Below are positions 7,164 through 44,460 of a DNA stretch of 64,000 bases, piece by piece. The notes below the pieces were generated by a model. The model was not told where the DNA came from. It saw only the letters and a list, made by a program, of their open reading frames with translations, and did no database searches. Both the position numbers and the translations under genes were made by a program. This DNA comes from Negaprion brevirostris (Eukaryota). The stretch covers positions 54,251,894 to 54,315,893 of the forward strand of contig JARDVH010000106.1 in the NCBI GenBank assembly GCA_030324005.1. Reading direction: 5' to 3'. Position 1 is the stretch's first letter. Every line of letters begins with the position of its first letter.

Positions 7164-9054
7164 GTCATTCCTGAAATGAAAGCTTTCAAGTACAGGATTC
7201 AAGTTTATGGATAAGAGCAGTGATTACAGGGGAAGATTCAAAGGTTGGATGAAGGATGGTTTGCTTATCCCTTCTTAACCAGTTCTACATTATCATGAGT
7301 GTGCCTTTTTGTCGATGGCATCCAGGCTGAGTAGATTTGCCAAAGAATCAGTCCCTCCTATAAAAATGAATTGGGCTGACACAGGGAACAACTGAGCAAT
7401 ATCAAGATTGCTGGCGAAGCACTTGTACCTTTATTGTGAGAAGGTAATATAGTCACAAAAAGTCTTGATCTGTGGAGGAAGCAGTCTAACTCCTTGGGCT
7501 AGATTTTCATTTACTGGTGGAGGTGGGAATGGGGTCAGGAATCCTGGAATCCTGAAACCCTGAAGTTATTGGCTGAAAAAACAAATTTCTTCATCCTTCC
7601 CAAGCCTGCACTGTTTTTATGTGGCCTTTTCACAGGTTAAGAAAGCTATGATTCATGACCGCGTACACACCTCTTCTGAGATTGGGGTCAGCATTGTGAG
7701 CCATATAGGACATTTGAATTTTCTGTTCTACATTTTTTACGTGTGCTGGTGCAGTGTTTGGAAGCACAGTTTAAAAAAAAATCTGCCTTACTGTAGGGCT
7801 CCTGTTCACTGGGGAAAGCCTGCTGAGGGCCTGTGACATTCCGACAGGTAAATGTTTTGACAACTTCAATTGTCACTATTAGGTGCTGTATTGGAATGTA
7901 AATGTGTTTTATCTGCAGTGACTTTTTTACTGGATCATAGGCCTCTGTTTTGGAAAGGTTAGTTGATCATTATGTTGGTCATTTATTGCTCAAGTGTTGA
8001 GAAGTGTTAGTGTACTTTCCCTTATGCATTTAAAACTGAAGAAAACACTGCTTCTCATCTCTAGTGTAATAATTTTAAATGATTTAAATGCTCAGAGCCC
8101 TGCTAAGTTGGAAATAAAAGCTTGACTTAAAAAGCAAAAGTAGCCACGTGCTCTAGGGCTGCTTTGATTAACATGGCATCTAGTGTAGCTTAGAGAAACT
8201 AATTTTTCCCTGGTTTTAATGAACTCTACTGATTATACTTCCCAGGGTTTGGTTTGACAGCTGAGACCAGTTTGAATGTTTTGCTGAGTTTTAAAAGCTA
8301 ATGAATGAGGAAACTGCTCTTATTTTGATGGTTTTAATTTTTTTTGTTTAAGGATTTTCTGCCTTTGATTTGAGGTGTATTCTTCTAACACCACATTGGT
8401 CAATTGAGTGGATTTTTAATGGTTTTTGAGTTTTTTTCGGTGTGAAGTGTATTTTATAAGATTTATAGAAGTTAATTTGTTAATTTCATTTCAAAGACAT
8501 CCTGAGGTCATCCCACCGTGATACTGGATAAGTGGCTATGAATGACACATGGAGCATGGAGGGGGCAGATGGAGTATGAAGGAATATGGAGGCAACATGA
8601 GAAGATGAGGGGTCACGGGAGTATAAAGAGACATGGAGGGGGCATGGGAGTGGCTGTGAGGGTTGAAGGGGTGAGTTATGAGATTTAGGGGGCATAAGAA
8701 TGATGTCGGGAGCTGGGCTGGCCAAGAAACATAATGGACCTTCCAACCAATGTGCCTTTACACACACATTTGCACTGTATTTGTGGCTTACAAAACCCAA
8801 CCCCTCTCTGTTCATGATTCTGAGTGGGAAAAGTCTGATGGAAATGGGTTTTTCAGGCTGGGGCATGTTTCAGAAGCTGCCAAGGATCTGACTCACTCTT
8901 TCCTATCCCTAAATGAAAATTCACCCCCTTCAGTTGAAGATTTGAACTTTGTTATTATTCAGAAAGCATTCATTTGTCTTTAAATTACTTTGTTGTTAGA
9001 TAGCAACTCAGTAATATATTAATTTCCAGTTTACACAAAGCAAGTAAAGCTAAA

Positions 9055-9285
9055 GTTTATTTACTAGTCACAAGTAGGCTTACATTAACACTGCAATGAA
9101 GTTACTGGGAAAATTCCATAGTTGCTGGACTCCGGCACTTGTTTGGGTGCAATGAAGGAGAATTTAGCATGGCCAATGCACCTAACCAGTACACCTTTCG
9201 GACTGTGGGAGGAAACTGGAGCACCCGGAGGAAACTCACGCAGACACGGAGAGAACATGCAAACTCTGCACAGACACTTGACCAA
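9055..9285 (-). mobile_element. V-SINE (TAAA-tail subfamily), head truncated
   Basis: tttatttactagtcacaagtaggcttacattaacactgcaatgaagttac...gtgggaggaaactggagcacccggagg...cacagacac. Confidence 0.88.
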
Positions 9286-10549: not shown

Positions 10550-13255
10550 ACAGGGCTTTAGATATCGTGGAACCTTTTGATGAAAATGTGGAACCATAGA
10601 GCTCCTATACTGGGCATTTTGACAAAATGCAAAAGATATTAGGGTGCTCATGTTCCAGAGAGCAATTGGGAGGAGGCAGGGTGGAGGAAAATCTAATCTC
10701 CTCAGATGTTTAGTGCAACTGGGGAAGCCATGCACTAAAACATTTGAACAAATCCCAATATTTTGCAAGCACATTTTTCACTGGAGTCCTTGGTAGTAAT
10801 AGAATGTTTCAGATTCCACAAAACAAATCAAGAGGGGGAATCAAATGTGCAATTCATGGCTGCGTTAAAAGACTTGCAGAATATTGTGAGTTTGGAGATG
10901 TGCCGAATGACACAATTCTGTGGTTTGCAAAGTGAAGTAATAAAGAAATAATTGCTAATCGAGAGCAGCCTAACTGGGAAAAAGGCCGTGGAAATTGCTA
11001 TATTCATGGAACTGGCAGAAAATAAGCTCTGCAACTGAGTTCATGAACTCGTGCACAAAATGTCAGCTGAATCAACAGTTTTAAAACTTGTACATATCAC
11101 TGATGGGCAAAGCCAGGGCACTCAGCTGTGGAATGCTAATGTAAAGATATAGAATGCAGAAGCTGTGATGGTGGGGGGTGGGGGGGGGGGGGTTGGGAGA
11201 GGAGGAAGGGGAAGCGAAGACACAAGAAGCACATCTGCTGGAAGAAAAAGCAACCAAAATAGCACGTAAACAGAAAAAAAGAAAAAGTGTTCATGCTGTG
11301 CAAAAGGGTTGAGAGAAATGAAGTGACTCTAAGGACAAATTATCACTGAATGCACAAGTCATTTTTGATGCTATAAATAGATATTGGGTCATTCTGTTGC
11401 TGGATGGACAGCCAGTAACGTAGGAAGTTGACACTGGGGCGGCAGTCTCTCTGATGCCAGACTGTATATAAAAAATCTCAAACTCACGCTCCCTTGAAAG
11501 CTTCAAGAATAGCGTTGAAGACCTGTACAGGTGACATGATTCCGCTGAAGGGCCGTGTTAAGCGGCACGGTGGAATAGTGGTTAGCACTGCTGCCTCACA
11601 GTGCCAGGGACCAAGATTCGATTCTGCCTTGGATCACTGTCTGTGCGGCATTTTCACATTCTCTCTGCATGCATTGGTTTCCTCCCACAGTCTGGTTATG
11701 TAGATTGGTCATGCTAAATTGTCCCTCATTGTACCTGAACAGGTGCCAGGGGATTTTCACAGTAACTTCACTGCAGTCTTAATGTAAGCCTACTTGTGAC
11801 ACTAATGCATAAAAACGGAATTAACTGTGCAACTTAACGGACAAACAACAGCAGATTTGTCTCTACATGTAGTGAAGAGCAGCATTGACGGTTTGAACAT
11901 GTTTAGGGAAGATTTGACTAGACTGGGCTGAAGTTAGCCTGATGACTAATGGAGAATCAGGCCTAACAAGAAGAAACACATGGTTGTGTTTGGAGGACTT
12001 GGGGAGTATGAAATACATTTCAGTTAAATTTAAGATTTAAAGAAAGAAGGCAAGCAAAGTGCTTGAAGGCAAAGTCGGTATCCTATGCTATCAGGCTGAA
12101 AGTGGAGGCTGACTTGCAAATACTTGTGAAAACAAAAGTCTTGGAACTTGTTGGCATTAATGAATGGGCCACCGCAATATTACCAGTCATCGAGAAGGAT
12201 GGATCTGTAAGGATTTTCGGGGATTTCAAAGTTGCCCTAAATTGAGTAATATGTGTGGAACTATACCCATTACTTCACATCAATAACCTGTTGGCGGGAT
12301 CGGTAGGAGGCCAACATTTTAGCAAATGAAGCTAAACCAGGCTCATTAACAGATGAATATGGACCAGAAGTCGCAGGAACTTCTGACAATTATGACAAAG
12401 GCTTGTTCTGGTTTCAAAGATTGCTGTTTGTCATCACATTAGCTCCTGTGTTTCAAAGAGCAATGGATCAGATCCTGAGTGGACTAAGTGGACTCCAGTA
12501 CCATCTGGATGACATCCTAGTCACTGGAAGTAATGAAGAGGAACATCTTCAGAATTTGGATGCCACTCTTCAGAGATTGGAAGATTATAGGCTGAGAGTT
12601 TGCAAGGACAAGTGAGTTATTTGAGTCCTCCATTGGGTATTTGGGACACTGATGCCATGTGCTATTACAGAGGCACCTGCACCACAGAATATGAACCTTT
12701 TGAACTACTACAGAAGATCTGTCCCAGATTTGGTAACCATTTTAAAACCAGTGCATAACTTGTGCCAGAACAAGAGGTGGAAATGGTCAGGTCAAAGCAA
12801 TAATCTGAAGTCCCTACACATTTTGATCCTACTCTACCCCCGTAGTAAGCATGTGGTGCATCCCCTTAGTGTTGCAGCAGCGGTATCCCACATCCTGCAA
12901 CAGGCAGGTGAAGAAAGATCCATTGCTTTTGCATTTCAAATCTTGAACAAGGCTGAAGGTAACTATGAACCAATTGAAAGAGAAGCATCAGCGACTATCT
13001 TTAGTGTAAAGAAATTCCATTAATTCCTATATGGAAGAAAGTCCACTGACAGACCATCCATTGACCACCATTTTTGGACCACATACGGGAATTGCGTCAC
13101 TGGCAGCAAGTAGAATGCAGAAATGGAAATTGCTGATATCTGCAGATATTTATACTGTCAAGTATCAACAAACAAGTCTATGTTGTAATGCAGATTGACT
13201 GTCAAGATTACTACTACTACCAAGTAGTTTGTCAGCTAGTAATTCATCCAACTAC
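10550..13255 (+). mobile_element. Ty3/Gypsy LTR retrotransposon (Mag-like), decayed gag-protease-RT-RNase H
   Basis: Gag 'EPFDENVE...HFSLESLVVIECFRFHK...LAEYCEFGD...CGLQSEVIKK'. Protease 'LDGQPV.*EVDTGAAVSL' (~11400-11455). RT 'EWATAILPVIEKDGSVRIFGDFKV' and 'YHLDDILVTG'. RNase H 'ERSIAFAF...IEREA' and 'AD*LSRL' (~13190). Confidence 0.9.
11563..11815 (+). mobile_element. V-SINE (TAAA-tail subfamily) inserted in the Gypsy protease region
   Basis: gcggcacggtggaatagtggttagcactgctgcctcacagtgccagggacc...ttcgattc...ggggattttcacagtaacttc...gtaagcctacttgtgacactaatgcataaaa. Confidence 0.88.
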
Positions 13256-13355
13256 NNNNNNNNNNNNNNNNNNNNNNNNNNNNNNNNNNNNNNNNNNNNN
13301 NNNNNNNNNNNNNNNNNNNNNNNNNNNNNNNNNNNNNNNNNNNNNNNNNNNNNNN

Positions 13356-13483
13356 AGCCACATGAACAGACTGGGAATGGAGGGATACAAACAAATGTAG
13401 ACCATTTGTTGGACCTCGGAGCGGCGCAGGCTTGGAGGGCCGAAAGGCCTATTTCCTGTGCTGTATTGTTCTTTGTTCTTTGA
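13356..13483 (+). mobile_element. CR1 LINE 3' tail
   Basis: ...ggagggccgaaaggcctatttcctgtgctgtattgttctttgttctttg, with a (TGTTCTT)n tail. It abuts the start of R2-like copy 1. Confidence 0.75.
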
Positions 13484-16377
13484 TAAATGCAGGCTGTTGG
13501 AGAATAATGCACAAGCTGCAGCATTGGCAGCTATTGTAGAAGAACCCCGGACTCTGAACAAGAACAGGATCTGGATGAGGCAGACGTCATGAACCCGATT
13601 CTGCGTACAGTCTTCATTAGCCAACTCCTGGCCTTAATCCCTAAACACAGGGAGGTAGAGGATCAGGTTACACAGGCCAAGAGGTTCCTGAGCGCGAGGA
13701 ACAACCCTGATGGTTGTGGCCAGGGAAAAGGTTTAATGGAGAGCATCACCAACTTCCTAATGAACGGTGCAAGAACCAGGCAGGAGAAGGAAGGTCCCAT
13801 TAAGGTAAGTGCACATAAGAAGGACAAAAGAAGGCCCAAGAATGATGTGAACACTGGAGAGAAGAAACAATGGGCAAAACGAAAAGCCATTTTCAGAGCT
13901 ACCCAACTGCTCTACAATAACAATGGGCATCAACTTGCTCAACAGATCATGGGGGCACCCACAGCTGTATTATGTCCACTGTCCACTATGGAGCAGGAGG
14001 AAAGTTTTCGAGAGAAACTCTCCAGTAAAAATAACGAATCCAACATCAGTAAATTCGCTATATACAAGGGCAAAACAGATAATGGGGAATTGATTGTGCC
14101 AATTGGAGCTGAAGAGGTTTCCCTGGCGGTTAAGGGAATCAAAGAGGCCAGTGCGCCCAGACCGGATGGTCAGAAAATCAAGGACATCCGTGATATTCAT
14201 GAGGTGGATGAAAACCGGATACCTTGCCTCTTCATCCTCTGGTTGACATCAAAGATGATCCCAGATTGCATGAAATGGAGTCGAACCATTTTGATCTCCA
14301 AATGAGAGGATCAAGAGTGCCTCAAGAACATTAACAACTGACGCCCAATTACTGTTGGTCCTATGTTGCTATGCCTCGTTACAAAGGCCAAGAGGTTGAG
14401 TGACACTGTTGACATTAACCCAAGACAGAAGGGGTTTTTGGCAGCTACACCTGGTTGCAACGAGAACATCACTGTGTTGCAAAACATCATGAAAGGTACT
14501 AAAAAAAAAATCACAAGGACCTGGCTGTTGTCTTTATTGATTTGGCAAAGATGTTCGACTCAATTGGTAATAAGCTTGTTATTAAAGCATTAGAGCGTGT
14601 TAAACTCCCACAAGCCTTTGTGGATCTCATTCACGATCTCTACACTGGCAATACAACGGTGATCGAGGGCGATTAAGTCCAAGACCACTGTAATAAGTAT
14701 AGAGAGGGGTGTAAAGCAAAGAGACCCACTCTCACCCATTCTGTTCAATATTGCAATGGATCTGCTGATTTGCAGTCCCGAAGAGGCCAACTCTGGTGTC
14801 TTTATGACTGTAGACGGAGCAAAAATAAACTGTTCGACCCCAGCTTTTGCAGATGACATTGTCCTCTTGAATGACTCTTACACCAGGACAGGATGGCGCG
14901 CAGCTTGAAGATCTTGCAGTCCTTCTGCAATCTCCCAGATTTGTCTATTAACATCAACAAGACAAAAGGCTTCCATTTTACTTATAAGCGGAAGACCTTC
15001 CTGTACAATCATTGTAAAAACTGGCAGATCCGGAAAGAGGTAATCGCCAATATCCCCCCCAGCTGAAATTGAAATACTTGGGTGCCTGGATAGATCCATG
15101 GGCAGGCGTGGAGGATAAATTTGAAGGTCTGGATATGCATCTTGCAGGCCGCAGGTCTCCGGTCAAGACAACGCGTGGAGATTTTAACTGCCTATGTCAA
15201 CCCGAGACTGTGTATTTTCACTTGATCCTCTCTGAGGCATCGCAAAACATGCTCATCATATTAGACTGAATCATCCGGAATGCTGTCAAACGATTCCTAC
15301 ACCACCTTCCACCACATATAACGGATGGCATCCTCTATTCCCCTATGAGGAATGGAGGCTTGGGGATTCCCAAACTGGAAATACAGATGCCACCGGCAGT
15401 TATTCATAAATGGTAATCATCATCTGCCTCCACTGATCGAATCATTTGTGCTTCATTCCAGTATTGTGAGCAGAACATAGGCGACAACATCCAAGAGCTG
15501 AGACCTCTCAACATCCTGAGGGAAATAGAAGATTTTCTGCCCGACGCTGGCGAGGTAACAATGATGCTACAGAGTCAGTGGATATGATCAGGGTGGTAAT
15601 GCCAATACTTGGGGAAGAGGAAGCAGTTCCCAGGAAGCCACCGAACATGTATGCAGGATGGGGGGAGTGGGAATTTGACAAATGGAGACAGTTACAATGC
15701 CAAGGAATCCATTACTACAATAATGACAAGATATCAAACTGCTGGGTTAAAACTGGATTTGAGCTGGACTGCAATCGGTTCATTAACAATTTACTCTTAC
15801 AATGCAATCTGTATCCCACGAGGGGCGACCCTAACAACAGGTAAATCCCTTGCCAATAAAACCCGCTGACGCTGTGAAGCAGGGACTGAAACACTTGGAC
15901 ACTTTTCCGGTTTTGCCCATTTCATTAAGAATTGCAGGTTTAAACGCCACGATAAGATCATGGATCAACTGTACAAGTTTGTTGGACAATATGGATGGAC
16001 ATCCTACCTACAACCACAACTTTACGCCAAGGATGGCTCTCTCTGGAAGCCAGATATCATCATCTTGGGATAAAGATCAGCGTGTTGCGGTGGTAGACGT
16101 GACCATCCGGTTCGAAGACAACTGCGGCAGTTTAGAGAAGGCGTGGGAAGAAAAGTGTGTGCAAAGTACAACCATCTGGGACCCGAAATCATGAAGTTAA
16201 CTGGAGGCCTGGGAATACGATACTTTGGATTTGTAATGGGCACCAGGGGCAAATGTCTCAAAGAACAACAGCCTTATGTTCGTGGGGATTAAAAAGTTTT
16301 AATCATTCGCCCAATAAATCTCAAGACTCACTCTGTCATTAACGTTGGAGTTATTAGCTATCTTCAACGACAGGTGA
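13484..16377 (+). pseudogene. Disrupted R2-type RT-RLE polyprotein ORF (copy 1)
   Basis: ORF pieces 13589..14305, 14363..14593, 15069..15269, 15578..15844 and 15850..16194 are joined by stops and frameshifts. Confidence 0.88.
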
Positions 16378-16892
16378 GAGACATCTCTATTATCAACAGA
16401 GTTAACTAGCTCTGCGCTTATTGACTATTCGGCCCTTTGAGCCTTAGGAGACCATATGAACTTTATATGGTGGACTCCATTATTTGTTTGATTTTGTACT
16501 AGAATTGTTTGTCTGTTGCTTATCAAAATAACATGCCTTTCCATCCTAAGATCTTGGTCCCCCTTGGCTCAGTCGGCGTGGGAATGCCACCACCAAGGAC
16601 CGCCCATGCATTCAGTTGCGTTGGTGGCTTCAGGACATCATGCACGCAATGCCTGTGCTGTTGGAAGGGCTTCACCATTGTGTTGCACATAATGCTACAG
16701 GGTGTCTTTGCAGTTTGCCCTTGGGGTTGGGGTGCTGCTGATACTCCCTCGTCCACGTGGCTTCTGCCTAGCCTGCTGGTTGGTGCGATATCTTCAGCAT
16801 CCGCACCAATCCTCGGCGCGGCACGGTTGTGCGTTTCTGTTGCCACTTTGTGCTCCATGTCCGTGCGGGTTTACCATGTTGGACCCTGTTAC
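13484..16892 (+). mobile_element. R2-like RLE non-LTR retrotransposon, copy 1 (5' part missing; includes the shared 3' trailer)
   Basis: RT 'APRPDG', 'INPRQKGF', 'GVKQRDPLSPILFN', 'AFADDI' (~14845). Knuckle '*RCEAGTETLGHFSGFC', then 'RHDKI'. RLE 'LWKPDII' and 'VVDVTIRFED'. The ORF ends 'SRLTLSLTLELLAIFNDR*' at TGA 16375-16377. Collinear with 19835-23140. Confidence 0.9.
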
Positions 16893-17192
16893 GGGCAGCA
16901 CGATAGCTCAGTGATTAGCACTGTAGCTGCACAGCCCTAGTGACCTGGGTCCGAATCGTGGTCTGTGGGAGTTTGCACACTTTCCTCGTGTCTGCGTGGG
17001 TTTCCTCCAGGTACTCCAGTTTCCTCCCACAATCCAAAGATGTGCAGGTTAGGTGGACTGGGCATGCTAAATTGCCCCTTAGTGTCAGGGGGATTAGCTC
17101 GGGTAAATGGGGATAGGGCCTGGGTGGGGTTGTGGTTGGTGCAGACTCGATGGGCCAAATAGAATCCTACAGTGCAGAAGGAGGCCATGATT
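16893..17192 (+). mobile_element. V-SINE fused to R2-like copy 1 (variant head, CR1-type HE1 tail)
   Basis: gggcagcacgatagctcagtgattagcactgtagctgcacagccc...gggtccgaatc; V domain ggagtttgcac...gtctgcgtgggtttcctcc...tcctcccacaatccaaagatgtgc; tail gcagactcgatgggcc. Confidence 0.88.
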
Positions 17193-18204
17193 AAGTTGCA
17201 TGAACCTACAAGTACTCAACTTCAGAGTTACACTGATGAAAGCAATCTGACCATCTGTGGATGTGTAAAGGAACGTAACCAGATCCTAATGTAGCTAACA
17301 ATCTAGTCAGCGTTTGGTGGTTGATACAGAGTGAACTTTCTACTGTAGAGATACATATGCTGATGTTCATATACATAGATGTAGGCTCATGATTCCTGCT
17401 CTCCAACAGAGTATTTGTGTTGTTTACAACAATGGGCATGACATGTAAGTGATTGGTTGTTTGCTTCCTTCAATCTAGTGTCAGAGTACAGCTGTAATCA
17501 TATTTCCTGATGCATCTGTTATGACATATGTTTCCACATGTTGAAATGCAAGAGGACTGGCAGAAATGATATCTTCTCCTTGAACATATCAAACAGCATT
17601 TACAGTATGATTGTCCATTCCCATTGCATCGTACCTTCCGAAGAGACTCCACAATCTGTGCATATTTAGTAATCAACTTGTGACAAATGTTGGTAGTACC
17701 AAGGAATTATGTCAAATCTTTCATGTTAGACAGGTTTGGAAATAAAGGAACAGCTGTAATGTTGTGTGTAAGCTTTACTCCAGCTGCTGTCACTCTGTAC
17801 CCTAGAAAGTCAATATGAGATGTCAAAATGTGCATTTGGCTTTGTTGAGTGTCAAATTGTGTTGTGTGAGCAGAGTGAGCACTGCTATTACCAGCTGATC
17901 ATTCCGGTTTTGTCCTGTCGTGGACAACACTATTATCAAACAGGTTGAGCATCCTCTCAGTGCCTGATGTAATGGTTTTCTGGAATGTGCTAAGTGCTGA
18001 ACTTAGTCCAGAGGGCGGTACTGAAATATACCTTCATGGGGAACAAAAGCTAAAAAAAAAGCAGCTTTGCTCTATTAAAATATCTGGACAGAGTTCCTGT
18101 GCACATCAAGCCTTGTGAGTCATGAAATCATACCGATAGTTTTTGAATTGTAGGAAGTGAATACTTGTCGTGGATGATAGCATTGTTCAACACTTTAACA
18201 TCAA

Positions 18205-18357
18205 TACCATAGAACCACACAATCCCTACAGAGCAGAAGGAAGCCAATCGAGTCTGCACCAACTCTCCAAAAAAAGTCTTATCCAGACTGTATCCCCACC
18301 CTAGCTCCATAACACTACACAGTTACTTTGGCTTATCCACCCAACCTGCATACCTTG
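18205..18357 (-). mobile_element. V-SINE 3' fragment (CR1-type tail) within the Gypsy RT
   Basis: catagaa...aatccctacagagcagaaggaagccaatcgagtctgcacc...tatccccac...atccacccaacctgcatac. Confidence 0.7.
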
Positions 18358-18360
18358 GAT

Positions 18361-18493
18361 GGGTAAGTTTTCTGGTCTCGCCTCCAGGAATCATTACTGT
18401 TGGGACAGGACAATTTGTTGGACTGTTTAAAAATCTGTTGACCTCAGACTAGAATTTCTGGTCTCGGGTCAGGTGTGACCAGAAAATCCCACC
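18361..18493. mobile_element. Short MITE-like element
   Basis: Inverted termini ggtaagttttctggtc / gaccagaaaatcccacc. It interrupts the Gypsy RT. Confidence 0.55.
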
Positions 18494-18619
18494 TCTGGTC
18501 TAAGTTCACCATTTTGTGTTGTGCAATGACTAAGTTTGATTCCATGGTAATATATCTGCTTTTAGTCATTTCAGCTTGTGTGACACTTTGACACAGATTG
18601 CAAAAGACAATTGTCCCAG

Positions 18620-18762
18620 CCTTTAATATCCATTCCTAGTTGCCCTTGAGAAGGTGATGGTGAGCTGCCTTTTTGATCCAGTGATGTCGACATGATATTG
18701 ACACACCCAGAATGCTGTTCGGGAGGGAATTCCAGGATTTTGACGTATTTCCAAGTCAGGAT
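18620..18762 (-). mobile_element. 3' tail of the second LINE family (as at 3205-3900)
   Basis: gttgcccttgagaaggtgatggtgagctgcc...gctgttcgggagggaattccaggattttgac...ttccaagtcaggat. Confidence 0.75.
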
Positions 18763-18862
18763 NNNNNNNNNNNNNNNNNNNNNNNNNNNNNNNNNNNNNN
18801 NNNNNNNNNNNNNNNNNNNNNNNNNNNNNNNNNNNNNNNNNNNNNNNNNNNNNNNNNNNNNN

Positions 18863-21800
18863 ATCTGTGGAGATTGGGTACTGTTAGTATTGCCATCGAA
18901 AGAATGAATAGTCTGCCTGAAAAGGAGTCCGGATGGGTTGTGTCCTGGATTAACAACAACCCCTCAGACGAGTATGTAGCCGCTCTCTGGGAACAATTTA
19001 AAAAGCTAGGTTAACAAGGTCTAACTGGAATGAGCTAATGACAAGATCCGTCTCCAAACAGAAGAGGCTGTCTTGAAACCCGGAATATACTATTAGCACT
19101 ATTGGGTGGTGCACTCTGGCCCCAGACCAAAAGAGTCAACCGCCACAATAGTGGAAGACAATGAACCTATAGTAGAAGAGCCTGTGTGGACAACCCATCC
19201 AGCGGATGATGTAGAAATAACTACACTTACCTTCTACAACAAGGCATATCAAGCCCAGATTACGGGAACGGGAACTTTGGCAAACATCGCCATTACCGAA
19301 AGCGATGTGGGTACCAATAATAGATACCTTCATCGAGACTGGTAGCATTGAACCATCTCAGGATCAGACAGAGGTTAAGGAGGAGGTCATTCATTATCTT
19401 GATGCGTTATTCTGCAACTCCTGTGATACCATTCTTCCAACGGTCAGAACGTTCAGTAAACATCTTAAGGCAGTGCATAGGATCAAAAATATTCGAACCA
19501 AACGCTCACAATGTGGTAAATCCGGGGAGTATCACTCTATCGCTTGTCACTACGCGAAGTGTAAAGGTGCGAGGCCTTTGACAGTCGGGCAACACCACTG
19601 CAGCGCATGTAAACTCGTGTTCACAACGGGAAGTGGACATCAACATCCAGCTCTTTGCAATACCAAACATTTGAAGCAGGGACTGCCGGCTCCGACCAAA
19701 CAGGGAAGGTTGCCATCTGTACGGTGTGAGGAGGAAGAAGCACTCCACACAGAACCAGGATGAGGTTTGCTGGGTCCCGGCGCATCAATAAGGACATCAG
19801 CGTGGACTTAAAAAAAGGCTGAAACAAATCTCCGATAAACGTAAGGCACAAGCTGCAGCACTGGCAGCTGTTGTGGAAGAACCCCTGGATTCCGAACAAG
19901 AGCAGGATCCAGATGAGGCAGACGTCATGGACTCAATCCCGCTTACTGGCTTCGTCAGTTGACTCCCAGCCTCAACCCAGGCTGAGGTGTTCCTGAACGC
20001 TAGGAATGACCCTGATAGTCGTGCCTGGGGAATAGGTTTAATGGAGAACATCACCAACGTCCTTATGAATGGTGCAAGAACCAGGCAGAAAGAAGGTCCC
20101 ACTAAGCTAAGTGCGCATAAGAAGGATAAAAGAAAGCCAGGAATGATGTGAACACTGGAGCGAAGAAATGATGGACAAAACAAAAAGCTGTTTTTAGAGC
20201 TACCCAACTGCTCTACAAAAATAATAGGCGTCAACATGCTTGGCAGATCATGGGGACGCCCACAGCCACATTATGTCCACTGTCCACACAGTGCAGCTGG
20301 AGGAAAGTTTTCGGGAGAAACTCTCCAGTAAAAATAACAAATCCAACATCAGTAAGTTTACCACATACAAGGGCAAAACAGGTAATGGGGAATTGATAAT
20401 GCCAATTGGAGCTGAAGAGGTTTCAGGCCAGTGCACCCGGACCGGATGGTCAGAAAAAATAGGGGACACCCATGATATCCATGAGGCGGATGAAAACCGG
20501 ATACCTCGCCTCTTCACCTTCTGGTTGACGTCAAGGATGATCCCAGATTGCATGAAACGGAGTCAAACCGTTTTGATCCCCAAATGCAAGGATCAAGAGC
20601 GCCTCAAGAACATTGACAACTGGTACCCAATTACTATTGGTCCTATGTTGCTACACCTCTTTACAAACATCATGGCCAAGAGGTTGAGTGACACTGTTGA
20701 CGTTAACCCAAGGCAGAAAGGGTTTTTGGCAGCAACACCCGGTTGCAACGAGAAGATCACCGTGTTGCAAAATATTATGAAGGGTGCTAAGAAAAATCGT
20801 AAGGACCTGGCCGTTGTCTTTGTTGATTTGGCAAAAGCGTTCGACTCCATCAGTCATAAGTTACTCATTAAAGCATTAGAGTGTGTAAAACTCCCACAAG
20901 CCTTTGTAGATCTCGTTCAAGATCTCTACACTGGCAATACAACAGTGATCGAGGGCGCGAAGTCCAAGACCGCTTCAATAAGTACAGAGAAGGGTGTAAA
21001 GCAAGGAGACCCACTCTCACCCATCCTGTTCAATATTACGATGGATCTGCTGATTTGCAGTCTTGAACAGGCCAATTCCAGTGTCTTTATGACTCGAGGC
21101 AGAGCGAAAATAAACTGCTCAACCCTGGCTTTTACGGATGACATTGCCCTCTTCAGTGACTCTTACACTGGGACAGCATGCAATTTGAAGATATTGCAAT
21201 CCTCCTACAATCTCACATGCTTGTCTATTAACATCAACAAGACAAAAGACTTCCATTTTACTTATAAGAGGAAGACCTTCCTGTACAATCATTGTAAAAA
21301 CTGACAGATCCAGGAGGTAATCGCCTGTATCCCCCCAGGTGAAACTGAAAAGTACTTGGGTGCCTGGATAGACCCATGGGCAGGCGTAGAAGGCGGCGCT
21401 TGGGAGGAAAAACCTGAAAGCCTGGATATCCAGCTTATAGGCTGCAGCTCTCTGGCCAAGATAACGCATGGAGATTTTAACTGTTTATGTCATCCCAAGA
21501 CTGTATTTTCACCTGATCGTCTATGAGGCATCACAGAACATGCTCATCAAATTAGATCTAATCATCCGGAATGCCGTCAAACAATTCCTACACCTTCCCC
21601 CCCCATATAACAGACGGCATCCTCTATTCCTGTATGAGGAAAGGAGGCTTGGGGATTCCCAAACTTGAAGTACAGATACCATCAGCTGTTATTCGTAAAT
21701 GGGAATCATTTCCTGCTTCCACTGATTAAATCATTCATGCTTCCTTTCAGTATGGTGAGCAGAACATCGGAGACAACATTCAAGAACTGAGATCTTGCAA

Positions 21801-22638
21801 CGTCCCGAAGAAGATCAAGGATTTTCTGCCTGATGCTGGTGAGGTTAACAATGATACTACTAAGTCAATTAATATGATCAGGGCAATAATGCGAATACTC
21901 GGAGGGGAGGAAGCAGGTCTCAAGAAGCCACTGAACATGTATGCAGGATGGAGGAATTGAGAAGTTGACAAATGGAGACGGTTACGATGCCACGCTGTTG
22001 GAATTCACTACTACAACAATGATAAGGTGTCTAACTGCTGGATTAAAGTTGCACTCCAGCTCAAATCTAATCGGTTCATTAACAACTTACTTTAATGATG
22101 CAATCTGTATCTCACGAGGGTGACCTTAACAAAAGGTAAACCCCTTGCAAATAAAACCGGACAACGCTGTGAGGCAGGTACTGGAAGACTTGGACACGTT
22201 TCTGGTTTTTGCCCATTCGTGAGAATTTGCAGGATTAAATACCACAATAAGATCTTGGATCAACTGCACAAGTTTGTTGGAAAATACAGAGGGACATCCT
22301 TGCTAGAGCCACGACACATTGCCAAGGATGGCTCCCTCTGGAAGCCAGATATCATTTTCATAAGGGATAAAGATCAGCGTGTTGTGGTGGTAGACGTGAC
22401 TATCCAGTTCAAAGATAACCGTGGTAGTTTAGAAAAGGTGCGGTAAGTTATGGAGTTAACTGGAGGCCTGGAAATATGTTACTTTGGATTGGTAATGGGC
22501 GCCATGGGCAAATGGCTCAAATAACAACAGCCTTATGATGTTCCTGGGTATCATAAGTTACAATCATTCGCCCAACAAATCTCAAGACTCACCTTGTCAT
22601 TAATGTTGGAGTTTTTAGATATCTTCAGCGACAGGTGA
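18863..22638 (+). pseudogene. Disrupted R2-type polyprotein ORF (ZF x3, Myb, RT, CCHC, RLE), copy 2
   Basis: ORF pieces 19106..19345, 19305..19763, 20240..21304 (354 aa RT), 21468..21668 and 22120..22446. Confidence 0.9.
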
Positions 22639-23140
22639 GAGACATCTCTACAATCAACATTCTAGCTCTGGGCTTGTTGACTATATGGCTCTTAAAGCCT
22701 TAGGAGACCATATAAACTTATATGGAGAACTCCTTTACTTGTTTTATATTACAATTGTTTGCCTGTTTCTCATGAAAATAACTTGCCTTTCTATCCTAGG
22801 TATCTCAATCTCCCTTGGCTCGGTCAGGGTGGGGACACCACCACTAAGGTGCTCCTATGTGTTCAGTTGTGCGTCGGTGGCTTCAGGACGTGATGCTCGC
22901 AATGACTGTGCTGTTGGAAGGGCTTCGCTGTTGTGTCGCACATAACGCCACAGGGTGTCTCTGCAGTCTGCCCTTGGGGGTGGGGTGCTGCCAGAACTCC
23001 TCTGCCCATGTGGCTTCTGCCTAGCCCCCTGGTTGGTGCCACATCTTCGGCGTCTGCACCGATCCTCGGCACGTGTGTGCGTTTCTGTTGCCACTTCGTG
23101 CCCCTTGTCCATGTGGGTGTACTGTGTTGGACCGTGCTAT
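18863..23140 (+). mobile_element. R2-like (R2-A architecture) RLE non-LTR retrotransposon, copy 2, near full length; 5' end lies in a gap
   Basis: ZF1 'CNSC...FSKHLKAVH', ZF2 'SQCG...HSIACHYAKC', ZF3 'CSACKLVFTTGSG..H'. Myb-like 'RCEEEE...INKDI...KQISDKR'. RT 'DLAKAFDSISH', 'GVKQGDPLSPILFN', 'LAFTDDI'. Knuckle 'QRCEAGTGRLGHVSGFC', 'YHNKI'. RLE 'LWKPDII' and 'VVDVTIQF'. Stop TGA 22636-22638. Confidence 0.92.
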
Positions 23141-23330
23141 GGGCAGCACGATAGCTGTGATTAGCACTGTAGCTGCACAACCCCAGTGACCTGGGTCCGA
23201 CTTTCGGCTCAGGTCATGGTCTGTGGGAGTTTGCACATTCTCCTCGTGTCTGTGTGTCTCCTCCGAGTACTCCGGTTTCCTCCCACAACCCAAAGACGTG
23301 CTCTCCAAATTGATTGGCAACACTAAATTG
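23141..23330 (+). mobile_element. V-SINE fused to R2-like copy 2 (same variant head, no recognisable HE1 tail)
   Basis: gggcagcacgatagctgtgattagcactgtagctgcacaaccccagtgacctgggtccga...ggagtttgcacattctcctcgtgtc...tccggtttcctcccacaacccaaagacgtgc. Confidence 0.85.
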
Positions 23331-23749
23331 ACACTGATTCATTTGGCTGGTTTGCATTGCATGCTGCAAGCTGGCCTATTTGTAGTTTGGATTGTCTGGT
23401 CATACTGCATGTTGTAGTCCCACACAATCCTTTTGTTCTAATATTTCAATTTGATTTTCATCTGTTTTATTTTATTATTTCATTAAAATTTAAGTATTCA
23501 CTTTTTCTAATTCAGCTTGCCCCATCACTCCCAATCATTTATTCCCTTTCCTGATAGTGGAGTTTCGTGCGCTGGTAATTGACAACCCGGCTCATTAGGC
23601 CCAATTAGATCTCGGGATGTTAGTGTAGCTTAGCTGCCTTTTAATTTGACCTTATAAATCTGGCCTCAATTTAGACCAGCGGTCCCTTGGCTGTGGACTC
23701 GCTAGAGGTAGGCAACCACATTGAGCGACGTAAAGACTCGAAATTGGCA

Positions 23750-24710
23750 CTCCTTTTGAGTGTGTTAAGATAGACAGTACACCAGTCACTCTGGACAAAT
23801 GAGGAAGGTCATTTGGAGCGATCCGACACTCTCAGAAGTGACGGACATTGTATTACGAGGGATGACTTCAGAACTAACATCTGACTTGAAATCATACTCT
23901 AGAAGATTGGAGCAGTCAATACAGTCACAGTGATTTATTTGGGGGTTCAGTGGTCATTCCACCACCACTGAGAAAATGAGTGTTACATGAAGGCCATTAC
24001 AGAATTGTACACTAAGGAAATAGCCAGGAATTTTTTTCTGGTGGTCTGAATTAGACACAGAAATTGAAGAGACTGCTGGAAGATGTTCTTCATGACGAAG
24101 GTAAGAAACCTGCCACCTTTTAGCCTTCCATGGGTGCCTACACCCATGGAAATAGCCAGATGAGACTTGCCAATGATCGCGTGTAGACTCTGCAGGACCT
24201 TTTGAAGGACATGCATTCTTAATAACAGTCCAAGTACCCAGAAGTCACCATAATAAAATTTACTTAATTGAGACTAGAAGAAGTCTTTAATATGGATTCC
24301 CCAAATAAGTAGCAAATGAGCAGACATCAATTTTTCTCCCAAGAATTTGAAAAGTTCTTGAGAATGGTATTCAACACATTAGGACTGTAACGTACCATCC
24401 TGCTATGAACAGACTAGCTGAACATTTTGCCCAACAATGAAAAATATATTGGGAAACTAGGGAAATGTCTTAGCCAATTCCTACTGTTGTATAGGAATAC
24501 CACTCAGTCTATGACCAAAACCTCTCCTGCATTATTAATGATGAGGAATCAATTATGACCGGAATTCGATCTGTTGCATGGACAGAGAGAAAGGTGGGAA
24601 GGCAAAGTAAAATGTTGTGTGGGTTCCTACTACAAATGTCGCACAGACTAAACCTGTCTCATATACCGTCCAAGACAGAGATGAGGCAAGTGGACCAGTT
24701 GTTGGCAGGA
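23750..24710 (+). mobile_element. Ty3/Gypsy integrase region; likely continuation of 10550-13255
   Basis: 'DSTPVT...SDPTLSEVTDIV', 'VIPPPLRK', 'HEGH', 'EIARNFFWWSELDTEIE...RCSS', 'VDSAGPFEG', 'YHPAMNRLAE', 'FLLLYRNTTQS', 'RQVDQLL'. Confidence 0.85.
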
Positions 24711-25605
24711 AATGGAACCTGCTGAAAATCTGGGTTCATCTGTGCAAAGCCCTGACCTGAATCTCCCTGTAACCCTGACACTGACTGACACTGGTTTACA
24801 GGTGAGGTGTTGCTTTCCACGATCAGAGTCAATCTCTAGTTACAATGTCAGTCAGTGTTCAGGTCAGGGCTTTGCACAGATGAACCCAGATTTTCAGCAG
24901 GTTCCAGCTTAAATGAGCAGGACTGAGGAATGGCCTTTAGTTCAATGTAAAAACATTATTTTGTACAAGCTCTCTTGTCTTTAGCACTTTATCTCTCCCT
25001 AAGCCCTTTCCTGAAGATGGCTGCCTTACTTGCAGCTGTTCCCTTAGCACCTCATCTGTGTCTAAACTTCTTTCTTGCTCACAGCACTCTAACTACAAAT
25101 TGTATCAATTGCAAAGACCACCCTGTTCCCTATTCTTTTGTTCTCTTAGATGGTGCCCAGACATGGTGTATCAAATACATGGCAGATTGATTTTACTTGT
25201 GTCAAAATAATATTAATTTTCATGGGATCCTACCATTTTGTGACACCACACAGTGAACGCCACCCTGTAAATAAAGCTCCTGGTGTCAATTCTCCACTGT
25301 ACAACACAACCTGTCCTTATTTAACTCTATTGACCCTAACACTTGTTTCTTTGTTCCCCCATATGCTTACCTTGCCTCCACTTAATTCATCTTTACTATT
25401 CACTTCAATCACTTCCAAACGACCATCACTTTGGGTAACAAAGATTTTTTTTCTGAATTCCTTAGTTCTTGGTGAGCGTTTTGTCTCGATTATCCTAATT
25501 TTTTGTTTTCCCACAATCAAAATATTTTCTGTGTCCGCTGAATCAAAACCTTTCCTGATTTTACGGAACTCTAAGTCACCCCTCACCCCACGTTCCTGAT
25601 ATAAT

Positions 25606-44132: not shown

Positions 44133-44460
44133 AAAGTTTATTTATTATTGTCACAAGTAAGCTTACCTTAACACTGCAAAGATGTTATTGTGAAAATCCT
44201 CTAGTTGCCACACTCCAGTGCCTGTTCAGGTATACTGAGGGAGAATTTAGCATGACCAATCTGCCTAAGCAGCACGTCTTTTGATCTGTGGGAGGAAACT
44301 GGAGCATCCAGAGGAAACCTATGCAGACACAGGGAGAATGTGCAAACTCCACACAGACGGTGGCCCAGGTCGCAAATCGATCCTGGGTCCTTGGTGCTGT
44401 GAAGCAGCAGTGCTAATCACTGTGCCACCGTGCCACCCCCACCACTGTGCTACCGTGCTG
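44133..44460 (-). mobile_element. Full-length V-SINE (TAAA-tail subfamily) with a duplicated 5' terminal ~20 nt
   Basis: Tail, V domain and head are present. cactgtgccaccgtgcc is repeated as cactgtgctaccgtgct at ~44442-44459. Confidence 0.88.

Follow-up and report, generated by a model that had tools for sequence, protein, structure and literature searches.

Copies A and B, the two R2-like elements of the window (the whole 64,000-nt stretch of Negaprion brevirostris DNA analysed), most probably (about 80%) belong to a dead, dispersed family of lineage-A R2 elements. Its 3' UTR contains an internal cassette comprising some 200 nt from the 5' end of a V-type SINE, which we take to be V-SINE/HE1, and likely a piece of rDNA ITS1, likely captured once by template switching of the reverse transcriptase (RT) and then eroded. 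Copies of the family located outside rDNA start at or within a 28-nt leader of 28S sequence, and most of them end just before TAG.

Copies A and B and their affiliation

In a self-alignment of the window, A (13505-17045) and B (19842-23301) form one long repeat with 80.7% identity over 3597 columns, and homology is absent from their flanks. The repeat crosses both stop codons (Table 1), and both ORFs are disrupted by stops and frameshifts; the first ~190 nt of copy B, including the 28S leader, lie inside an N gap (18763-18862). Beyond the stop codons, the AT-rich part (GC content 0.37), the GC-rich part (0.57-0.59, with a CpG observed/expected ratio of 0.55-0.58), and the shared start of the SINE were all confirmed as described in an earlier note on this DNA, but its statement that both copies end in this trailer proved incorrect: B runs to 23770, and A turns at 17046 into the tail of a free V-SINE and ends at ~17190. 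ARAGORN called no tRNA gene within 16300-24000, and the three Rfam matches within 11000-25000 were all far from the cut-off.

Table 1. Features of copies A and B (positions in the window)
Feature	Position	Strand	Remarks
Copy A, ORF (RT, zinc knuckle, RLE; 5'-truncated, broken)	13505..16377	+	stop TGA 16375-16377
Copy A, AT-rich proximal 3' UTR, native R2 UTR part 1	16378..16550	+	
Copy A, GC-rich segment, likely an eroded rDNA ITS1 piece	16551..16892	+	assigned via longer relatives
Copy A, SINE: tRNA-like head and V-domain with family-specific changes	16893..17045	+	
Copy A only, tail as in ordinary free V-SINEs, replacing the R2 3' end	17046..17190	+	recombinant or template-switch chimera
Copy B, R2, near full-length, broken	18863..22638	+	stop TGA 22636-22638
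Copy B, three N-terminal zinc fingers	19413..19647	+	CCHH, CCHC (one Cys -> Ser), CCHH (short deletion)
Copy B, stop-free RT stretch	20504..21301	+	best solved relative R2Tg
Copy B, AT-rich proximal 3' UTR	22639..22801	+	
Copy B, GC-rich segment, likely ITS1-derived	22802..23140	+	
Copy B, captured SINE piece: SINE 5' end through V-domain, without SINE tail	23141..23335	+	
Copy B, distal 3' UTR: last ~120 nt (conserved) and family 3' end	23336..23770	+	TAG at 23771

Compared with solved structures, the RT of copy B scores 208 bits against R2Tg, 111 against R2Bm, and 72 against L1, and the database proteins nearest to it are shark R2s (Scyliorhinus, Chiloscyllium; 67-68% identity). The finger region is 43% identical to that of the turtle R2 P0009 (E 1e-24) and is followed, in a different frame, by a broken Myb-like motif, read by eye. 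The motifs of the C-terminal zinc knuckle and restriction-like endonuclease, likewise recognized by eye in the translations, are present and partly degenerate, and the alignment with homologues extends to the C-terminus. In protein trees the genome's own copies form one group inside the shark R2 clade. The family is classified as a 28S-derived lineage-A R2, and the R2-A-type assignment proposed in the earlier note is borne out by the three zinc fingers with the Myb-like motif, the RT closest to R2Tg, and the clade shared with shark R2s. Three zinc fingers with Myb also characterize the lineage-A shark elements R2-1_STig, R2-1_SAc, R2-1_CPu, and R2-1_SCa, as does a 28S site, which in the family is evident at some of the ends, as far as the visible text of PMC13188248 Table S2 goes.

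The surroundings of copy A contain remnants of other elements: a decayed piece of an LTR-retroelement pol (RNase H-like, PF17919) at 11900-13255, upstream of copy A and stopping at an N gap, and a LINE-type 3' tail, presumably of CR1, at 13356-13483, immediately upstream of the truncated 5' end.

The composite 3' UTR

The 515-bp trailer has at least 16 matches in the genome and the 5' part of copy B at least 48; relatives were read from 40 genome stretches, each of up to 10 kb. The homology between copy B and its relatives continues ~435 bp beyond the SINE piece, to ~23770, a sharp common 3' end in 11 aligned ends, and because it passes the SINE to reach one shared end, the SINE is internal. 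The UTR is ordered as native part 1, the ITS1-like piece, the SINE head with the V-domain, and then native part 2, which carries the conserved end. Of the two options considered in the earlier note, capture of a SINE as a permanent 3' module of the element is thus upheld as to the capture and not as to the module, since the SINE proved to be a passenger inside the UTR, truncated at its 3' end and accompanied by the ITS1-like piece, whose nature the note had not recognized. Nor is it permanent: in a census of 28 ends, 16 were distinct with the stop codon in view, and among these the SINE is whole in 10, partial in one (beside a gap), and absent together with the GC segment in five. Among the remaining 12 ends the SINE is visible in seven, and five are truncated, deleted, or gapped.

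The same junction was found on at least seven other contigs. The 3' UTRs of the family are 512-1306 nt long, most with the ITS1-SINE cassette, and the length of their GC segment varies: loci L076 and L078 have a long one, A and B one of medium size, the L138 group a short one, and L092 none. Folded as a consensus, the terminal 120 nt of 18 copies give nine pairs and a covariation term of -0.17, a weak result.

The SINE piece spans the SINE 5' end to the end of the V-domain; the tail is missing from B and the relatives compared, chimeric copy A alone having one. Identity between the embedded SINEs and the free ones of the genome is about 72-85%, with lower values for two truncated copies. Of the changes regarded in the earlier note as absent from free SINEs, AGCTCA/TAGCTGTG (10 of 16 embedded and none of 24 free SINEs) and TGTGGGAG (8/16 and 0/24, respectively) retain this status, unlike GTGATTAG, which also occurs in three of the 24 free SINEs, one of them inside the window (44133-44438). 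The diagnostic changes are characteristic of the A/B branch. Loci with the GC segment and a SINE in the absence of R2, which the earlier note had suggested looking for, did not appear, the GC segment being absent upstream of all 21 free SINEs that come closest (scores 20-30 versus 187 for the control).

The GC segment of L078 is collinear with positions 9048-9205, 11258-11431, and 11462-11592 of contig C50 (72%, 67%, and 64% identity; E 1e-19 to 3e-5), stretches located by Rfam between 18S and 5.8S, and a search from the ITS1 side recovers the same link (C106:28815627). The scores against ITS1 of L078 (290), L151 (165), L137 (103), L076 (135), and L143 (115) are reached by 0/200 shuffles and also exceed the ITS2 control. 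Those of A and B (80 and 82.5) are above 200/200 shuffles, with nearly as high values against ITS2 (68 and 76.5), and for the short remnants of L138 and L149 the match to ITS1 is no better than that of shuffles. A descent of the GC-rich segment from the ITS1 of the host rDNA is well founded for the family and transitive for the window copies, because A and B barely beat ITS2 while the five longer relatives clear both shuffles and ITS2. The ITS1 homology reaches the SINE start and stops at a GGGC common to the first bases of the SINE.

C50 comprises three rDNA units, of which the middle one alone was taken as that of the host, owing to its dispersed chromosomal copies; fragments of C50 ITS1 are scattered on several host chromosomes. 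The units, each represented in part on this 17.5-kb contig, are unlike one another, and the third ends just beyond an empty R2 site. As its 28S differs from that adjoining the R2 copies, the third unit may be foreign DNA or a mis-join.

It is worth mentioning that in many copies a splice-donor-like motif overlaps the stop codon (16370-16385 in the window) and a pyrimidine tract with AG precedes the ITS1 piece (16540-16552); no spliced copy was found among the loci read. A SINE-less R2 copy (L094:6600-7070) has within its 3' UTR a retrocopy of ribosomal protein S19 (PF01090, E 4e-28) with a polyA signal and an A-run, a second foreign RNA in a UTR of the family, seen in one copy only. At L142, L138, L097, L075, and L077 a pair of family copies is found in head-to-tail or nested arrangement; assembly duplication could account for some of them.

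Insertion sites and 28S flanks

The 24 distinct 5' ends cluster at -28 to -21, and every classed one has a 28S leader, of up to 28 nt and preceded by unrelated DNA in 18 and longer in four; two were not classed. Position -28 is given as the commonest R2 self-cleavage position in the available text of PMC3774820. A match to the HDV ribozyme lies at the expected place and is sub-significant in Rfam (17 bits, E 4.1). The 3' ends comprise 35 distinct ones, of which 33 were anchored; (A)TAG follows 20/33 and (A)TA[AG] 25/33, against a background of 1.7% and 3.9%, respectively, and real 28S (at least 15 nt; 21 to about 85 nt) follows five of the 33.

SINE-bearing copies with 28S flanks are found at L137, L138, and L139. 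The young copy at L138 has retained open frames of 683 and 381 codons, and at L139 the R2 lies between two pieces of 28S (28S-R2-28S), outside which there is a duplication of 15 bp. Among ten two-ended copies, two have a long target duplication (84 and 105 bp), and their targets, TTAAT/TACTG and TAATATG/TAAGCC, resemble the 28S sequence TTAAGG/TAGCC. No target duplication was detected for A or B (scores 19-23), which have no 28S flanks, and no copy inside an intact rDNA array was seen among the copies read. Two ends lie inside V-SINE tails (L094, L098) and five within a motif that is presumably that of a CR1 RT, in both cases at TAG/TAA look-alike sites; on the whole the flanks are diverse, with no single fixed new target sequence. 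A non-specific, R2NS-type element was also considered and is ruled out by the 28S leaders, the TAG bias, and the 28S tails at 3' ends.

At 23685-23720 of the window, and in relatives, a ~33-nt stretch is seemingly complementary to 28S ~70-105 nt downstream of the insertion site. Antisense pairing of the terminal UTR, tried in nine copies with a decayed copy of 28S as partner, did not stand out, the value of the real sequence being reached by 22-253 of 300 shuffles.

Origin of the cassette and relation to known elements

The ORF DNA tree of 16 copies has the form of a ladder, in which a single clade of SINE-less copies is rejected (p-AU 0.001), and in the outgroup-rooted protein tree these copies are nested among the SINE-bearing ones, so that a single gain needs later losses or recombination; the second protein tree was anchored on L138, which may draw the root there. 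The zebra shark element R2-1_STig has a short 3' UTR with the same terminal motif, SINE-free in the visible text of PMC13188248 Table S2, and because of this outgroup the cassette is read as a gain. In public contigs compared with L138, the SINE head and the ITS remnant are bridged in two of four runs, from two organisms: one piece of run X1 spans the SINE head, the ITS remnant, and the stop codon, and one of run X13, from the other organism, spans the SINE head and the ITS remnant; the pieces listed for the remaining two runs show no such bridge. A metagenome pattern scan gave 0 matches.

We infer that the cassette was captured by template switching. Master copies would reside in 28S genes and be transcribed along with the pre-rRNA, and a 5' HDV-like ribozyme would cut the RNA at -28, after which it would be copied back mostly into 28S but often into TAG/TAAG look-alikes, on occasion with duplications of 84-105 bp. 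In the course of a single insertion in the nucleolus, the RT would have moved from R2 RNA to a SINE RNA, reaching its exact 5' end, then switched at the GGGC microhomology to an ITS1 fragment, and returned to R2 RNA. Since then the cassette would have been carried as a passenger upstream of the conserved end, a likely neutral one, given that the end bound by the protein is situated downstream of it and that, along the lineage, its SINE and ITS1 portions erode and become shorter. Both the SINE/ITS1 switch and the enzyme responsible for the dispersed copies are what we infer, and for each there is a tentative, rather unlikely alternative which would alter only one step of this explanation. For the switch, it is an origin at the DNA level, with a V-SINE that had entered the ITS1 of one rDNA unit and the ITS1-SINE piece later moved into an R2 3' UTR by ectopic recombination or gene conversion in the array. 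The presence of R2 and ITS1 in one tandem unit would make such recombination easy, and the ITS1 homology does reach the SINE start; moreover, insertion of a V-SINE into another element is a known route, as for MER6 (PMC6887750, in the text available). However, the SINE piece has neither a tail nor ITS1 behind it, and L153, the sole other ITS1 copy across the position, aligns through it unbroken. For the enzyme, the abundant CR1/L2/L1 machinery could have made the dispersed copies in trans from R2 or 28S-R2 RNA, with no loss of specificity by the R2 protein; L139 with its outer duplication resembles a processed pseudogene, the five 3' ends with 28S fit such an origin, and copy A and L014 finish in SINE/CR1-type tails. 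Against this, most copies end precisely at the R2 end, both duplication-bearing targets resemble the 28S site, and the long duplications are reminiscent of R9, a member of the R2 clade.

The other option of the earlier note, in which the R2 lineage would have acquired a new fixed target immediately upstream of a repeat containing a SINE, is very improbable. The junction is identical in many copies and two ends do lie within V-SINE tails, but these hits are at the tail and not the head of the SINE, the element ends hundreds of bases past the SINE, the flanks beyond that end are unrelated or 28S, and the GC segment is missing from the closest free SINEs; the SINE-bearing copies with 28S flanks refute retargeting. 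Hardly credible at all is the idea that a single R2 adjoining a SINE by chance was duplicated locally long ago, named in the earlier note as the refuting case. A and B are only 6.3 kb apart, yet their flanks are not duplicated, their identity (~82%) is not above that to a copy on another contig (84-85%), and the junction recurs on many contigs. A bolder, decidedly improbable reading gives this vertebrate lineage-A R2 a double life, with a home in 28S and insertion by its own protein throughout the genome at TAG/TAAG look-alikes with R9-like duplications of 84-105 bp; the SINE would serve as a homology handle for swapping templates with free V-SINEs and borrowing a CR1-type tail, as in copy A and L014. 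If this were true, the borrowed V-SINE tail would provide a second route out of rDNA.

The captured-cassette family can be set beside several known systems. The 3' UTRs of the shark R2s in PMC13188248 Table S2 are ~215-565 nt long, compared with 512-1306 nt in the family, and show no SINE motif in their visible text (the first 400 characters); the table lists no UTR for SCa, CCar, and CMax. That study sampled rDNA-embedded copies, and its accessible part yielded no passage on dispersed shark copies. The visible 28S-flank cells of R2-1_CCar from the great white shark are empty in the same table, and several shark R2 proteins sit on contigs of 0.25-4.4 Mb; R2 dispersal may be common in sharks. 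A published R2 also has rDNA-derived sequence in its 3' UTR, in that case 28S from beside the target, whereas the family's piece appears to be ITS1, kilobases away and joined to a SINE. R2-type elements at non-rDNA sites are represented by R2NS-1_SMed, R2NS-1_CSi, the sponge R2 homologues, and BLAG1-6, described as non-specific in the parts available of PMC5035012, PMC13188248, and PMC7650587. Unlike them, the family keeps the -28 28S leader and 28S-flanked copies, and is for this reason leaky rather than retargeted.

A long target-site duplication is also a feature of the rotifer element R9, according to a title cited in PMC13580325. R9 is, however, specific for its 28S site and has a fixed duplication, whereas that of the family is found off target, in two of ten two-ended copies and in two sizes. 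The duplication of R9 is reportedly 126 bp. As in the MER6 MITE, a V-SINE fragment is a passenger of another transposon, but MER6 is a DNA transposon in which the SINE head was lost, in contrast to a non-LTR element with the head kept and the tail lost (PMC6887750, as far as available). A parallel in insertion sites is that of the Drosophila extra-rDNA R1 and R2 copies, mainly R1, which are off target, carry downstream 28S bases, and occupy look-alike sites; R2 copies of this kind come from five species and are 1-2% diverged from rDNA copies (PMC2718515, in the text available). The dispersed copies of the family, unlike those of Drosophila, number dozens, with 65-90% mutual identity and a long history. 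In the literature searched, with Repbase and most subscription papers outside its scope, neither an R2 3' UTR containing ITS1 or SINE sequence nor dispersed shark R2s were found to be described.

The finding does not represent a new targeting system. Old R2 copies are normally wiped out by rDNA turnover, and the scattered copies preserve a series of 3' UTRs with the cassette absent, long, medium, or short, so the genome likely holds a rare record of foreign-RNA pickup and off-target insertion by such elements. Foreign RNA of 300-700 nt is evidently tolerated in an R2 3' UTR upstream of the conserved end, and the junctions are footprints left in vivo that agree with a switch of templates between nucleolar and Pol III RNAs. 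For gene insertion into rDNA, use is being made of lineage-A R2 proteins (PMC13580325, in the part available), and these off-target junctions, a natural set that combines leaders from -28, priming at TAG, and long duplications, would offer a direct test of what loosens the specificity of lineage-A R2.
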